Part shown: piece by piece, positions 23,814 to 30,491 of the stretch | Layout of the letters: each line of letters starts with the position of its first letter | Position numbering within the stretch: position 1 is the stretch's first letter | Assembly: GCF_009931435.1 (NCBI RefSeq) | Contig: NZ_CP043414.1 | Length of the DNA: 64,000 nucleotides | Reading direction: 5' to 3' (one strand) | Source of the DNA: Escherichia coli | Lineage (GTDB): Bacteria; Pseudomonadota; Gammaproteobacteria; Enterobacterales; Enterobacteriaceae | Made by a program: the position numbers and the translations under genes | The notes under the pieces: model-generated | What the model was told of the DNA's origin: nothing | Databases searched by the model: none | Seen by the model: only the letters and a program-made list of their open reading frames with translations

Positions 23814-25208
23814 TTAATCGTGAGCGCCGATTTCGCGCAGTTTACGACCTTTCATCAGATTACGTTCAATATGTTCCAGCGAAACGTGTTTGGTTTCCGG
23901 TACCAGCCACAATGTCAGCAGAATAAACAGTACGTTCAGAGCCGCATACACCCAGAAGGTGTTGGCGTTACCCAGCGTGTTGAGCATGGTCAGGAACGTT
24001 GCGCCAACGATCATGTTGGCAATCCAGTTGGTGGCGGTGGAGCAGGTGATGCCAAAATCGCGGCCTTTCAGCGGCTGAATTTCGGAGCACAGTACCCAAA
24101 TCAGCGGACCGGCACTCATGGCAAAGCCGACAATAAACATCAGCAGCATGGCGATAGCGAAATACTGCGCCGACGGAGAGTGGATACCGATATGCATCAT
24201 TGTACCGAGTACGCCCATGCCAGCAGCCATCACCAGGAAGCCCAGCGTTAGCGTTGGTTTACGTCCCCAGCGGTCAACAAGGCCTATTGCGATAAAGGTG
24301 GCGAGTACGTTGGTGAGACCGACGATCACTGTCCCCCACATTTGCTCGGTGGTGTTGGTATAACCCGCCAGTTCGAAGATTTTCGGCGCGTAATACATGA
24401 TGACGTTCATCCCGGTGAATTGCTGCATTACCTGCAACAGTACGCCAAGGAACACCGCGCGGCGGAAGTTGCTGTTCTCTTTAAACAGCGCCCAGCCACT
24501 CTGTTTAACCTGCAAACTTTCACGGATTTCATCCAGTTCGCGTTTCGCTTCCGCACTGGTGTCGCGCAGGCGCAGCAGCACGCGCTCGGCATCAACAAAA
24601 CGGCGTTTGGCAGCAAACCAACGTGGGCTGTCTGGCAGGAAGAAAACACCAATCAGCAGCAAAATTGCCGGGATGATAATCACACCCAGCATCCAGCGCC
24701 ATGCACCAGTGTAGCTAAAGGCGGTATCAGAAAGATAAGCACCGAGGATCCCGATAGTGATCATCAACTGATACATCGAGATCATACTGCCGCGAATTTT
24801 TTCCGGCGCAATTTCAGAGAGATACAGTGGTGCGGTATAAGAGGCCACACCCACCGCCAGCCCCAGCAGAACGCGGGAAAGAATCAGTACTTCAACGTTT
24901 GGCGCAGCCGCAGAGAACAGTGAACCGGCAACAAACAGAATTGCGCCGATCATCAGGCTCTTTTTGCGCCCGAGTTTAAAGGAGAGCCAGCCGCTACCCA
25001 CCGCACCGACTGCCGCACCGAACATCATGGAGCTTACGACCCATTCTTGCGTGTGCGAAGTAATCTGGAATTCATCAGCAATAAACGGCAGTGCGCCAGC
25101 AATTACACCGATATCCAGGCCAAAGAGTAATCCCGCCAGAGCGGCAAGGAAGCAGACGAAAAACGTCATTGCCTTGTTTGACCGCCCCTGTTTTTTAGCG
25201 TCAGGCAT
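23814..25208 (-). CDS. galP: Galactose:H+ symporter GalP (MFS sugar porter)
   Basis: ORF trimmed to [24 protein letters not shown] start (464 aa). Confidence 0.95.
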
Positions 25209-25551
25209 GATGCCCTCCAAAATGGTTATTTTTTATTGTGAATTAAGATAGGTGAGTACGACGTAAAAAGATGTGAAGCAAATCACATCAGTGTAATCGC
25301 TTACACTAACATTTATCTTAGTTATGATTTAAGTGCATGAAAATAATTGAGTTATATCATCATAGATTAAACGCAGTTATCTGCAATTAAGACTTTACTG
25401 AAAAGAAATGTAACAGCTGTGAAAACTGAATAATAATATGAAAATATTACAAATATTTGGCTGGTGTGGTGGGTGTAATCGGTTTCAGTCGTGGTGATGA
25501 TTTGCGGTAAAACGTGTTGAGGAAGAATGATGTTATTGCGGGCGGTTTTTT

Positions 25552-25626
25552 GCCGGATGTGGCGTGAACGCCTTATCCACTTACATGTGACAGCGGTTGT
25601 GGGCCTGATAAGCGTAGCGCATCAGG
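25552..25626. repeat. REP pair (BIME-like)
   Basis: GCCGGATGTGGCGTGAACGCCTTATCC and GCCTGATAAGCGTAGCGCATCAGGC in the metK-galP gap. Confidence 0.55.
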
Positions 25627-25640
25627 CATTTCTCTGGAAA

Positions 25641-25672
25641 AGAAAAAGGCCAGCGCGAGGCTGGCCTTTGAA
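25641..25672 (-). terminator. Intrinsic terminator of metK
   Basis: Minus-strand hairpin AAAGGCCAGCCTCGCGCTGGCCTTT followed by a T-run. Confidence 0.5.
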
Positions 25673-25688
25673 AGCAGGTGAAGAAAGA

Positions 25689-26843
25689 TTACTTCAGACC
25701 GGCAGCATCGCGCAGCAGCTGCGCTTTGTCGGTTTTTTCCCACGGGAAATGTTCACGACCAAAGTGACCGTATGCTGCGGTTTCTTTGTAGATCGGATGC
25801 AGCAGATCCAGCATCTGAATCAGACCATATGGACGCAGGTCAAAGAACTCACGTACCAGCAGAGTCAGTTGTTCAGAAGGCACTTTCTCGGTACCGAAAG
25901 TTTCCACCATGATGGAGGTCGGTTCAGCCACGCCGATTGCGTAGGAAACCTGAATTTCACAACGATCGGCCAGGCCAGCCGCAACGATGTTTTTCGCGAC
26001 ATAACGTGCTGCGTACGCTGCTGAACGGTCCACTTTTGATGGATCCTTACCAGAGAATGCACCGCCACCGTGACGCGCCATGCCGCCGTAGGTATCAACG
26101 ATGATTTTACGACCAGTCAGACCGCAGTCACCCATCGGGCCACCGATAACGAAACGACCGGTCGGGTTGATGAAGAATTTGGTGGCAGAAGTCAGCCATT
26201 CAGCGGGCAGAATCGGCTTGATGATCTCTTCCATTACCGCTTCTTGCAGCGATTTCTGGTCGATCTCTTCAGAGTGCTGGGTGGAAAGTACTACAGCATC
26301 GATGCCAACGATTTTGCCGTCGTCATACTGGAAAGTCACCTGGCTTTTCGCGTCCGGGCGCAGCCACGGCAGAGTGCCGTTTTTACGTACTTCAGCCTGA
26401 CGCTGAACCAGACGGTGTGCATAGGTGATAGGTGCTGGCATCAGCACGTCGGTTTCATTGGTTGCGTAGCCAAACATCAGACCCTGGTCGCCCGCGCCCT
26501 GTTCCAGCGGATCGGCACGATCAACGCCCTGGTTGATGTCAGGAGATTGTTTGCCGATAGCGCTCAGGACCGCACAGGAGTTAGCGTCAAAGCCCATGTC
26601 GGAATGTACATAGCCAATTTCGCGAACGGTGTTACGGGTGATCTCTTCGATGTCTACCCAGGCGCTGGTGGTGATTTCACCGCCAACTAAAACCATGCCG
26701 GTTTTTACGTAGGTTTCGCAAGCAACACGTGCTTTCGGATCCTGTTCGAGGATCGCGTCTAAAACGGCATCAGAGATTTGGTCAGCAATTTTGTCAGGAT
26801 GCCCTTCAGAGACGGACTCGGACGTAAAAAGGTGTTTTGCCAT
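25689..26843 (-). CDS. metK: S-adenosylmethionine synthetase
   Basis: ORF trimmed to [22 protein letters not shown] start (384 aa). Confidence 0.95.
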
Positions 26844-26883
26844 ATTTAATATCACCTAAAGAGAATTTGGTTAGCTCAAACTG

Positions 26884-27150
26884 TTGTGTGGATTTTCTGT
26901 GGTAGCGGATCCTACCACGACTCTGCAGGTTAAAAACACTGGCAGTCTGAGTGTTAATCGGTATGGATGGATTAACATCTGGATGGCTATTTTAGGTCAG
27001 TTCTTCACCCAATTTCCACTTTTTTTTGAATCGTGTCTCATTCTGTTAAAAACGTGGCTGGAAATTTTTCCTGACAATGCTGGCATTCTGCGTATTTATC
27101 TTTTGCAATTTTCTGCCATTGTGGGGTATAAAACGCGGCGCGCGGCTTAA
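26884..27150 (+). CDS. Small uncharacterised ORF at the K-12 yqgD position
   Basis: 88-codon ORF in the metK-speA gap; only position and approximate size support it. Confidence 0.3.
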
Positions 27151-27362
27151 ATAAAAAGCACACGACGTTTCTTTCGTGTTGCCACTTCCAGCCGGGTTGA
27201 AATCAGAGTTTTGGCTTGTGGGTTCGTCTTAACAGGCGGCCGTGGAGGTGATACGAAATAATGAACCGTTGTCTGCTGCTTAACCTGTCTCACCGTTCTG
27301 GTGAAGATTCGTTCCCCGCACTCTGCATCTCTGCTTTGCATACCTGCCGATGTTATACCCAT
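27147..27362 (-). CDS. Small uncharacterised ORF at the K-12 yqgC position
   Basis: 71-codon ORF, matching the remembered length of K-12 YqgC; positional evidence only. Confidence 0.3.
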
Positions 27363-27497
27363 CTCGGCGCTTCTCAGGATTCAAGAGCTGGTTACAGTTA
27401 CTGAGGACTGAACAAGGGCGCTCTTGTAAAAACAAGAGTTTTCTCGTGGTTTCGCCGAACTGTCACACTTACGTTCGGTTATGTGTTTAATAATGTT

Positions 27498-27629
27498 ATG
27501 AAAAAGAAACCGGTTGCGCAGTCGGAGCGTCAGCATACTTTGCTGGAAAATCCGTGTGCTTATGGGTTGTTATCGCAGTCCCAGGCTGCGATAGTCGTTA
27601 ACTGTTTTACACTTAATAAAATAATTTGA
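27498..27629 (+). CDS. yqgB: Small protein YqgB (43 aa)
   Basis: Translates to [43 protein letters not shown]; ends 8 nt before the speA ATG; below the 60-aa track threshold, read directly from the sequence. Confidence 0.7.
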
Positions 27630-27637
27630 GGTTCGCT

Positions 27638-29614
27638 ATGTCTGACGACATGTCTATGAGTTTGCCTTCGTCAGCGGGCGAACACGGTGTACTACGCTCC
27701 ATGCAGGAGGTTGCAATGAGCTCCCAGGAAGCCAGCAAGATGCTGCGTACTTACAATATTGCCTGGTGGGGCAATAACTATTATGACGTTAACGAGCTGG
27801 GCCACATTAGCGTGTGCCCGGACCCGGACGTCCCGGAAGCTCGCGTCGATCTCGCGCAGTTAGTGAAAACTCGTGAAGCACAGGGTCAGCGTCTGCCTGC
27901 ACTGTTCTGTTTCCCACAGATCCTGCAGCACCGTTTGCGTTCCATTAACGCCGCGTTCAAACGTGCGCGGGAATCCTACGGCTATAACGGCGATTACTTC
28001 CTCGTTTATCCGATCAAAGTTAACCAGCACCGCCGCGTGATTGAATCCCTGATTCATTCGGGCGAACCGCTGGGCCTGGAAGCCGGTTCCAAAGCTGAGT
28101 TGATGGCGGTACTGGCGCATGCTGGCATGACCCGTAGCGTCATCGTGTGCAATGGTTATAAAGACCGCGAATATATCCGCCTGGCATTAATTGGCGAGAA
28201 GATGGGCCATAAGGTCTATCTGGTCATTGAGAAGATGTCAGAAATCGCCATTGTGCTGGATGAAGCAGAACGTCTGAATGTCGTTCCTCGTCTGGGCGTG
28301 CGCGCGCGTCTGGCGTCTCAAGGTTCTGGCAAATGGCAGTCTTCTGGCGGGGAAAAATCGAAGTTCGGCCTGGCGGCGACTCAGGTACTGCAACTGGTTG
28401 AAACCCTGCGTGAAGCCGGACGTCTCGACAGCCTGCAACTGCTGCACTTCCACCTCGGTTCGCAGATGGCGAATATTCGCGATATCGCCACGGGCGTTCG
28501 TGAATCCGCGCGTTTCTATGTGGAACTGCACAAGCTGGGCGTCAATATTCAGTGCTTTGATGTCGGCGGCGGTCTGGGTGTGGACTATGAAGGTACTCGT
28601 TCGCAGTCCGACTGTTCAGTGAATTACGGCCTCAATGAATACGCCAACAACATCATTTGGGCGATTGGCGATGCGTGTGAAGAAAATGGTCTGCCGCATC
28701 CGACAGTAATCACCGAATCAGGTCGTGCGGTGACTGCGCATCACACCGTGCTGGTGTCGAATATCATCGGCGTGGAACGTAACGAATACACGGTGCCGAC
28801 CGCGCCAGCAGAAGACGCACCGCGCGCGCTGCAAAGCATGTGGGAAACCTGGCAGGAGATGCACGAACCGGGAACTCGCCGTTCTCTGCGTGAGTGGTTA
28901 CATGACAGCCAGATGGACTTGCACGATATTCATATCGGCTATTCTTCGGGCACCTACAACCTGCAAGAACGCGCGTGGGCTGAGCAGCTTTATCTGAGCA
29001 TGTGTCATGAAGTGCAAAAGCAGCTGGATCCGCAAAACCGCGCACATCGCCCGATTATCGACGAATTGCAGGAACGTATGGCGGACAAAATGTACGTCAA
29101 CTTCTCGCTGTTCCAGTCGATGCCGGACGCATGGGGGATCGACCAGTTGTTCCCGGTTCTGCCGCTGGCAGGGCTGAATCAAGTTCCGGAGCGGCGCGCC
29201 GTGCTGCTGGATATTACCTGTGACTCTGACGGTGCCATCGACCACTATATCGATGGTGATGGTATTGCCACGACAATGCCTATGCCGGAGTACGATCCAG
29301 AGAATCCGCCGATGCTCGGTTTCTTTATGGTCGGCGCATATCAGGAGATCCTCGGCAACATGCACAACCTGTTTGGTGATACCGAAGCGGTTGATGTGTT
29401 CGTCTTCCCTGATGGTAGCGTAGAAGTGGAACTGTCTGACGAAGGCGATACCGTGGCGGACATGCTGCAATATGTACAGCTCGATCCGAAAACGCTGTTA
29501 ACCCAGTTCCGTGATCAAGTGAAGAAAACCGATCTTGATGCTGAACTGCAACAACAGTTCCTGGAAGAGTTCGAGGCAGGTTTGTACGGTTATACCTATC
29601 TTGAAGATGAATAA
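27638..29614 (+). CDS. speA: Biosynthetic arginine decarboxylase
   Basis: ORF trimmed to [21 protein letters not shown] start (658 aa). Confidence 0.95.
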
Positions 29615-29759
29615 TTAAGATTATTCCGCTATCGGGTCGATTTATTTACGTAAATCGGCCCGCTTTCTTTTTATATATTCTTAAAAATAATTTAGCTGCT
29701 TTCCTTATTGAATAATCTCCCTACAATCGCTGCATTAATTAAATGCAGAGGGAACGGTT

Positions 29760-30491
29760 ATGAAAAAATGGAAAGTACGTAGCGCGTTGGTGGCATTAGT
29801 CGTGCTGTTGGCCGGTTGTTCCAGTAATGCGCAGTATAATAGCAGTGCATCGGGCAATGTCGGCACCGCCTGGGGTGGGGATGTGCACTCAACGGTTCAG
29901 GGCGTATCTGCTGAACGAGCCTGGCGCGATCCGGCAGAGATGATCGTTATTAGTTATTCGACTAATGTTCCTTCCGGCTACGACCGCGTTTATAGCATTC
30001 GTATTAACGAACTTGAATATGCTATTCGCGATGGTAATTTTAATTCTCTACCTATTACGCGGGTTTATAATTCATCAGGTAAAGAACTACGCTATATAGT
30101 CCATGCCAGAGTAGGAATGAATTACCAATTATATGTCCGCAATTACAGTCGTAACACCAACTACGAGATCGTTGCGACAGTTGATGGCCTGGATGTTCTC
30201 AATGGTAAACAAGGTTCCCTGAATAACAACGGCTATATTGTGAATGCCGGGGATTCGTTGGCGATTAAAGGATTCCGCAAAGATAAACATACCGAAGCGG
30301 CTTTTCAGTTCGCCAACGTTGCGGATTCCTACGCAGCCAATTCGGCGCAAGGCGATGTGCGTAATACCGGTGTAATTGGCTTTGCAGCTTTCGAATTGCA
30401 AGGCCCGGCGCAAAACACGCTGCCGCCGTGCTCTGGACAAGCCTTCCCGGCAGATAACAATGGCTATGCGCCGCCACCGTGTCGGAAATAG
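29760..30491 (+). CDS. Predicted lipoprotein of unknown function (not present at this position in K-12 as far as I recall)
   Basis: 243 aa; signal peptide with lipobox LAGC; N/S/Y/G-rich; AT-rich coding sequence with rare ATA/AGT/AGA codons; preceded by an AT-rich gap. Confidence 0.7.
   Translation: MKKWKVRSALVALVVLLAGCSSNAQYNSSASGNVGTAWGGDVHSTVQGVSAERAWRDPAEMIVISYSTNVPSGYDRVYSIRINELEYAIRDGNFNSLPITRVYNSSGKELRYIVHARVGMNYQLYVRNYSRNTNYEIVATVDGLDVLNGKQGSLNNNGYIVNAGDSLAIKGFRKDKHTEAAFQFANVADSYAANSAQGDVRNTGVIGFAAFELQGPAQNTLPPCSGQAFPADNNGYAPPPCRK

Follow-up and report, generated by a model that had tools for sequence, protein, structure and literature searches.

The small gene yqgB, which ends at the start of speA, appears from our comparative analysis to be conserved for translation up to the speA start within a structured leader, rather than for its peptide. 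We analyzed this region in a stretch of 64,000 nucleotides from Escherichia coli (hereafter the window) and in the speA loci of other Enterobacteriaceae. We lean, with little better than even confidence, towards the reading that yqgB is a cis-acting translated upstream ORF (uORF) that promotes speA by translational coupling and by protection of the leader from Rho. The speA gene is the entry of the arginine route to putrescine, and its control once transcription has begun is poorly understood. The yqgB gene and the candidate uORF pair were already known, Adams et al. (2021) having named yqgB-speA a candidate uORF-regulated pair by analogy with mdtU-mdtJI. What is new here is the comparative evidence for conserved translation and RNA structure over conserved peptide, which questions the label 'acid stress response protein'.

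The yqgB frame and the leader of speA

The original prediction had described a 43-codon ORF ending 8 nt before the speA ATG. Its coordinates were right except for the end at 27637, which counts the spacer; the ORF itself ends at 27629 (Table 1). The spacer between yqgB and speA comprises the 8 nt from 27630 to 27637 (GGTTCGCT) and the TGA of yqgB overlaps the GAGG that constitutes the speA Shine-Dalgarno (SD) sequence (tTGAGGttcgctATG). Recognition of this ORF as the K-12 small protein YqgB was also borne out. The peptide matches Pfam PF11036 (YqgB) over residues 1-43 of 43 with a score of 105.2 bits (E 1.4e-30; gathering threshold 24 bits), it is identical to K-12 YqgB (b2939) at 40 of 43 positions (93%; substitutions L9S, S14T and F28S) and the gap in K-12 is also 8 nt (yqgB 3085920-3086051, speA ending at 3085911). 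Compared with the annotated YqgB of E. coli 2013C-4282 the window peptide shows no differences. An 841-nt stretch around yqgB was found in 5425 of the 5426 complete E. coli genomes, and the RefSeq annotation of that stretch reads yqgD - yqgG - yqgB ('acid stress response protein YqgB') - speA; YqgB also goes by the name 'virulence promoting factor'. In short, yqgB is a known, annotated small gene and not a new object. An in-frame GTG is present at 27483, 15 nt 5' of the yqgB ATG, and would give a 48-aa version; its context (GTG TTT TAC AAT GAT ATG) is kept in most genera, and RefSeq and INRI-seq use the ATG.

The gene order metK-yqgD-yqgG-yqgB-speA is common to K-12 and the window. Adams et al. 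built their speA 5'UTR fusion with a forward primer, GCGCGGCTTAAATAAAAAGC, that matches positions 27140-27159. Since the leader begins at 27140, yqgG and yqgB both lie inside the speA transcript. Translation of yqgG has been reported (Weaver 2019). This ORF is conserved across the family, including a stretch of 17 residues, with a flat codon-position entropy (0.57/0.54/0.67) and a dN/dS of 0.58. The sole C-rich, G-poor stretch of the leader lies under yqgG (GC skew -0.2 to -0.3) and is a candidate Rho loading region. The yqgB sequence is G-rich (skew +0.1 to +0.24), and a rut-type C-rich, G-poor region shielded by yqgB translation was absent, the only leader stretch with C in excess of G being the one under yqgG.

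Two other annotated genes overlap the leader and promoter region of speA, namely yqgD (26884-27150, + strand) and yqgC (27147-27362, - strand), the latter antisense to yqgG. According to Weaver et al., yqgC shows neither ribosome density nor a tagged protein and is not translated; it is therefore unlikely to be a real gene. Between the SD and the ATG of yqgG falls an RNA 3' end that has been mapped to K-12 3086295, equivalent to window position 27254. An Rfam scan of positions 25000-30000 returned no family, the only hit being a chance-level one to BASRCI337 (23 bits, where the gathering score is 229).

Table 1 Location of the features of the speA leader and early speA in the window
Feature	Position	Strand	Remarks
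-10-like TATAAA	27127-27132	+	from the sequence
5' end of the speA leader	27140	+	K-12 3086409 (Adams et al.); leader of about 498 nt
yqgG, first small leader ORF	27261-27404	+	47 codons; annotated; Pfam PF23505, E 3e-38
Hairpin T1, then invariant UUUUCUCGUGG	27420-27448	+	stem 27420-27439; terminator- or attenuator-like; between yqgG and yqgB
Hairpin P1	27454-27479	+	just 5' of the yqgB start; from folding and compensatory changes
yqgB ORF	27498-27629	+	ATG 27498-27500, 43 sense codons, TGA 27627-27629; no Shine-Dalgarno sequence, A/U-rich start context
Predicted RNA domain P2	27508-27568	+	in yqgB codons 4-24; AACC/GGUU closing stem, inner stem, CAGC/GCUG hairpin
Predicted hairpin P3	27565-27603	+	inside yqgB; invariant UUAUCGC and GCGAUAG arms, 11-nt variable segment
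Almost invariant 19-mer TGAGGTTCGCTATGTCTGA	27627-27645	+	yqgB stop and speA SD (GAGG), speA ATG at 27638, second TGA at 27643-27645
Predicted hairpin P4	27631-27683	+	SD end, spacer and UG of the speA AUG paired with speA codons 11-16
speA, biosynthetic arginine decarboxylase, long isoform	27638-29614	+	658-codon ORF
Dominant Rho-dependent RNA 3' end	27695	+	K-12 3085854 (Adams 2021); directly 3' of the predicted domain of P4 and long-range helices
Internal speA start, codon 27	27705-27718	+	AGGAGG 27705-27710, ATG 27716; short SpeA isoform (Meydan 2019, INRI-seq)

Conservation of the frame, its end point and the predicted RNA structure

Scanning one genome per species gave 80 Enterobacteriaceae speA loci, 78 of them with upstream sequence. 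A yqgB homologue was found directly upstream of speA in 78/78 of these species loci as well as in the window and in one further E. coli strain, which together make up the 80 sequences compared below. The family follows the pattern M[KNE]KKPVA..QH..L....VYGLLS....AIVVNCFTL.... and was found only in Enterobacteriaceae by a profile search of 5.8 billion proteins, which returned 132 clusters. One locus labelled Chryseobacterium sp. 18061 (L025) has a typical Enterobacteriaceae yqgB-speA region with 96% SpeA identity, and two YqgB entries are labelled Vagococcus sp. WN89Y (P0105) and Stenotrophomonas sp. MY15 (P0119). These assemblies are probably contaminated or mislabelled.

The yqgB frame was open in 80/80 sequences. 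When stop codons were counted in the 74 distinct orthologous sequences we found none in the yqgB frame and 265 and 169 in the two off-frames, which amounts to 2-4 per sequence; the openness of the yqgB frame is thus far beyond chance. The length of the ORF varies widely, with 43 codons in the majority and 38, 45, 47, 48, 49, 55, 60, 68, 87, 90 or 91 codons in the others. In 57 of the 80 sequences the yqgB stop is the TGA overlapping the speA SD. The other 23 end at a TGA inside ATGTCTGA (speA codons 2-3), resulting in an 8-nt overlap with speA and a peptide that terminates in ...EVRYV. Both configurations alternate inside genera (Citrobacter, Silvania). The variable tail falls into 12 length classes, all of them 0 or 2 mod 3, and never into the class that would fuse yqgB to speA. 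Adjacency is partly a by-product of the invariance of the 19-mer because two of the three frames terminate within it anyway; the informative part is the absence of any stop before the 19-mer, together with the avoidance of the third phase.

Part of the length variation comes from insertions of about 20-130 nt, all located at one TA in CTGTTT-TA-CACTT, a predicted internal loop. This site is equivalent to window positions ~27609-27610 and is occupied in loci L013, L032, L038, L043, L047, L050, L053, L054, L076 and L077. Each insert folds as a self-contained hairpin with the shared base AUACCC...GGGUAU, and all are read through in frame. The longest inserts (L054 and L077) appear to resemble ERIC elements, judging from the ERIC PCR primer sequences.

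We then considered where substitutions fall. For the 43 distinct 43-codon sequences the mean entropy at the three codon positions of yqgB was 0.45/0.57/0.54; it was 0.08/0.02/0.88 for speA codons 61-300 in the same species. By the Nei-Gojobori method over 14 independent species pairs, dN/dS was 0.75 for yqgB overall (pS 0.10) and 0.02 for speA (pS 0.30). The 17 variable codons of yqgB had a dN/dS of 1.04 and vary at all three positions. The 26 conserved codons had a dN/dS of 0.23 with a pS of only 0.06, and conserved blocks such as AAG AAA CCG, GGG TTG TTA TCG, GCG ATA GT and TGT TTT ACA CT show no variation at any codon position. The peptide may be under some selection since dN/dS is 0.23 in the conserved codons and the third-position changes in AIVVNCFTL were all synonymous in the 43-codon class. 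Taken together, a large part of YqgB drifts neutrally without acquiring stops, and the remainder is constrained at synonymous sites too. Such a signature points to an ORF whose translation is required and to an RNA (or DNA) sequence that needs to be retained, and not to a folded protein.

A few rare YqgB alleles of E. coli and Shigella flexneri (P0005, P0008, P0012 and P0009) carry compensated frameshifts or a 6-codon in-frame deletion. They regain the frame and retain the C-terminus, and some may be sequencing errors; we regard these scrambled alleles as anecdotal because annotation takes in intact ORFs only. On the speA side, codons 11-26 have the lowest synonymous diversity among the 16-codon windows of the first 300 codons (0.42 bits vs a median of 0.94), a conservation that was already noted by Meydan et al. 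Synonymous variation is strongly suppressed over speA codons 1-26 as a whole (27638-27718 region).

The conserved nucleotides coincide with helices predicted by folding. P1 shows compensatory changes at two pairs (e.g. AU:32 GC:9 GU:8). P2 has a predicted dG of -26.2 kcal/mol and a z of -2.9, 0 of 200 shuffles being equally stable, and its inner stem covaries (AU:34 GC:10, and AU:26 GU:14 GC:3). For P3 the dG is -15.9 kcal/mol and the z -2.45; its variable segment is always 11 nt in the 45 distinct variants and extends the stem beyond shuffles in 36 of them. The T1 stem is retained through many compensatory changes across genera. As judged from these alignments, T1, P1 and the inner stem of P2 are backed by covariation, and P3 in part. 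The T1 hairpin with its U-tract, followed by the invariant TTTTCTCGTGGTTTC, resembles an intrinsic terminator or attenuator. The terminator scan detected no terminator-like site between yqgB and speA, its only + strand site being at 27420-27439, upstream of yqgB. The 3'-end list in supplementary file 1 of Adams et al. has no entry between window positions 27254 and 27695, and hence none at T1.

P4 begins 2 nt after the yqgB stop and has a dG of -19.1 kcal/mol with a z of only -0.87, i.e. it is no stabler than shuffled sequence. Its 16 pairs are kept in 50/50 species, with 98.9% of cells paired, and among the changes in its 3' arm 26 cells keep the pair as G-U and 9 cells break it. Long-range helices that join speA codons 16-24 to invariant stretches of the leader or of yqgB are put forward by RNAalifold as well. 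P4 and these long-range helices are beyond a covariation test because they are invariant. One such RNAalifold pairing joins the invariant UUCUCGUGG to CCAUGCAGGA (27698-27708), which adjoins the SD of the internal speA start, and shows no variation. Across the consensus structure as a whole, pairing holds in 98.7% of cells, a figure that is inflated because the structure was derived from the same sequences, and in 34-47% with the partners slid; changes on both sides of a pair were found in 23 cells vs 8.8 in shuffles (0/500).

A possible cis-acting role and the alternatives

Published data bear on the speA leader in several ways. Adams et al. (2021) demonstrated Rho-dependent premature termination there with a 5'UTR-lacZ fusion in rhoR66S and by northern blot, and the 3' end that they list at K-12 3085854 has a Rho score of 3.09 and is flagged 'uORF'. 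Initiation at the yqgB start codon was seen in vitro by INRI-seq but not by Ribo-RET in vivo; the two methods agree on the annotated speA start and on the internal in-frame start at codon 27. In Salmonella, deletion of yqgB lowers speA and speB mRNA, arginine decarboxylase and spermidine and sensitizes the bacteria to acid and colistin (Cai et al. 2026). The words 'complement' and 'polar' are absent from the text of that paper. A fall in speA and speB upon deletion of yqgB is the outcome that a cis effect would give.

The mechanism we favor takes as its starting points the ORF, its co-transcription with speA, the use of its start codon in vitro, the Rho attenuation, the open frame, the end point and the substitution pattern. 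Translating yqgB up to the speA start would matter, and the 43-aa product would not. Ribosomes would initiate at the SD-less, A/U-rich yqgB start, unwind the conserved helices inside the ORF and terminate at the TGA overlapping the speA Shine-Dalgarno sequence or within speA codons 2-3. From there we infer that termination would melt the predicted P4 over the speA AUG and leave the ribosome beside the speA SD and AUG. The outcome would be translational coupling, either by termination-reinitiation or by facilitated de novo initiation. The footprint of a ribosome extends some 12-15 nt in the 3' direction from the A site, so that one standing at either yqgB stop would open at least the lower P4 helix. 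Ribosome traffic through the leader into speA would in turn keep Rho from terminating prematurely, and some physiological signal (polyamines, pH) may modulate the coupling between yqgB and speA.

A cis-acting uORF of this kind would explain why the frame is open, why its end point is fixed despite indels and why the speA frame is avoided. It would likewise account for the neutral peptide segments, the synonymous constraint and the drop in speA and speB on yqgB deletion. Two further observations fit indirectly, namely the low synonymous diversity in speA codons 11-26 and the location of the Rho-dependent 3' end at 27695, adjoining the predicted domain. Against a strict cis model stands the predicted stability of P4, which is not unusual for its composition. 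The speA start is moreover occupied by ribosomes in Ribo-RET and INRI-seq while upstream elongation is blocked, so coupling of speA to yqgB is not obligatory, and yqgB translation may be too weak to feed much speA translation because its start was unseen by Ribo-RET. Since the sole rut-like C-rich stretch lies under yqgG, it is also possible that yqgG is the main anti-Rho element.

The suggestion that the arrangement reflects translational coupling or leader-peptide-type control has accordingly to be divided. Coupling gains strong comparative support from an end at the speA start in 80/80 sequences despite indels, from the overlap of the stop with the SD and from the predicted hairpin, but its obligatory form does not survive the initiation seen at the speA start with elongation blocked. 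Leader-peptide-type control applies in the loose sense of a uORF inside a Rho-attenuated leader (Adams 2021), whereas the classical form is not supported: yqgB lacks a run of codons for Arg or another regulating amino acid, its C-terminal residues show none of the conservation of an arrest motif, and the scan detected no terminator between yqgB and speA that could pair with an alternative antiterminator. Arg-codon attenuation of the classical trpL/hisL type was rejected on the grounds that no regulatory codons are conserved; the sole Arg in the window peptide (R11) is itself not conserved.

The first alternative to weigh, which we consider unlikely, takes YqgB as a small protein that serves the acid stress response in trans and whose position next to speA reflects operon organization only. 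Its RefSeq and Pfam names point in this direction, as do the acid sensitivity and colistin sensitization of the deletion mutant, the reported binding of a drug to YqgB, the dN/dS of 0.23 in the conserved codons and the synonymous changes in AIVVNCFTL in the 43-codon class. Tagged YqgB is said to have been detected by Hemm et al. in 2008, and the acid phenotype and the 'acid stress' name reportedly go back to Hobbs et al. in 2010, both of which would also speak for a protein; Moore and Boyle are said to have mapped the speA promoter in 1990. A protein under selection is hard to reconcile with neutral evolution of 17 of 43 codons (dN/dS 1.04) without a third-position excess, with lengths of 38-91 aa, with inserts that derive from unrelated hairpins, with a C-terminus that depends on the frame, and with conserved blocks that are invariant at synonymous sites. 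The deletion phenotypes match the loss of speA and speB expression, complementation and polarity being unmentioned in the paper, and overexpression elicits an aggregation-type heat-shock response.

Somewhat less probable still is that YqgB acts as a nascent-peptide sensor of the SpeFL/MdtU/TnaC kind, in which ribosomes stalled on yqgB by a metabolite (polyamine, arginine or agmatine) would govern Rho termination as well as the translation of speA. Genes of the polyamine pathway do use such sensors, the pair was put forward by Adams et al. by analogy with mdtU, Rho attenuation takes place with a 3' end less than 200 nt downstream, and the AIVVNCFTL block is conserved at the amino-acid level. 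However, this block is kept at the nucleotide level, inserts of 7-48 codons part it from the stop in several genera, and the last 4-9 residues vary, being unlike in the two stop configurations. An Arg codon run is missing, and in an arrest-peptide screen YqgB overexpression gave the aggregation-type heat-shock response and not the arrest-like cold-shock response.

The least probable explanation, to which we give very little weight, holds the ORF to be incidental and the conserved blocks to be signals in DNA or RNA that have nothing to do with translation. A candidate internal speA promoter can be drawn (TTGTTA, a 17-bp spacer and TGcGATAGT, giving a TSS near 27605); two invariant blocks around a variable spacer of constant length would fit a 17-bp promoter spacer, and the flat codon-position entropy fits as well. 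But the hexamers match the consensus at only 4/6 and 4/6 positions and were not called by the scan, the invariance extends exactly over the predicted helices with a spacer that often extends the stem, and neither TSS data nor TSS tables covering speA were found in the literature. With variable codons that evolve neutrally and off-frames that hold 2-4 stops each, the lack of any stop across the 74 distinct sequences cannot be incidental; the yqgB start codon was also detected by INRI-seq.

Beyond the cis-acting uORF itself we put forward a broader proposal, which is tentative and which we think more likely to fail than to hold. YqgB would not be a functional protein but the ribosome-transit segment of a speA riboregulatory leader composed of yqgG, a terminator-like hairpin, yqgB and a start-codon hairpin, and the acid and colistin phenotypes of the deletion would be cis effects on speAB. 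Translation of yqgB could then set both Rho read-through and the ratio of long to short SpeA isoforms, possibly in response to polyamines or pH. An influence of the leader on the isoform ratio is conceivable because the uORF-adjacent start would give the long isoform only.

Implications and comparison with known systems

Should yqgB prove to act in cis, its label as an 'acid stress response protein', which has spread across the annotations of RefSeq E. coli and many Enterobacteriaceae, would be misleading. YqgB phenotypes, including those behind a 2026 drug-discovery effort with YqgB as the protein target, would then need to be re-read as speAB effects, and the speA leader would offer a tractable two-uORF, Rho-linked and structure-rich regulator of polyamine synthesis.

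K-12 YqgB is the same gene with the same gap and the same neighbours; its annotation implies a protein function that the substitution pattern described here does not support. The spermidine-responsive mdtU-mdtJI system (Adams et al. 2021) likewise has a small translated ORF in a long leader ahead of a polyamine-related operon, and Rho-dependent premature termination with a 3' end just inside the downstream gene. It differs in that 106 nt separate the mdtU stop from mdtJ downstream, whereas yqgB abuts or overlaps the speA start, and in that the C-terminal peptide sequence of MdtU is conserved while that of YqgB is variable; for mdtU, a start-codon mutant has been tested. In speFL-speF, which encodes an ornithine-sensing arrest peptide, a leader ORF also precedes a polyamine biosynthetic decarboxylase gene and Rho is involved. 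This likeness is one of arrangement: a C-terminal arrest motif is not conserved in yqgB, and we found no evidence that ribosomes stall on it. The residues adjoining the stop, whose conservation is a defining feature of arrest sensors such as SpeFL, MdtU and TnaC, are in YqgB variable and frame-dependent over the last 4-9 positions.

In a third group of systems, exemplified by MS2 coat-replicase and the ribosomal protein operons, genes are coupled by an upstream ribosome that melts a hairpin over the downstream start. In such pairs only a few nt, or none at all, part the stop from the downstream SD or AUG, and the start sits in a stem just 3' of the stop; yqgB-speA shares the first property and would share the second if the predicted P4 forms. 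It differs from them in that yqgB is apparently without a constrained protein product and in that the speA start is usable alone. The yqgB TGA overlaps GAGG 8 nt before the speA ATG or lies within ATGTCTGA, and this arrangement is kept despite indels in 80/80 sequences, with 12 tail classes and none in the speA frame.
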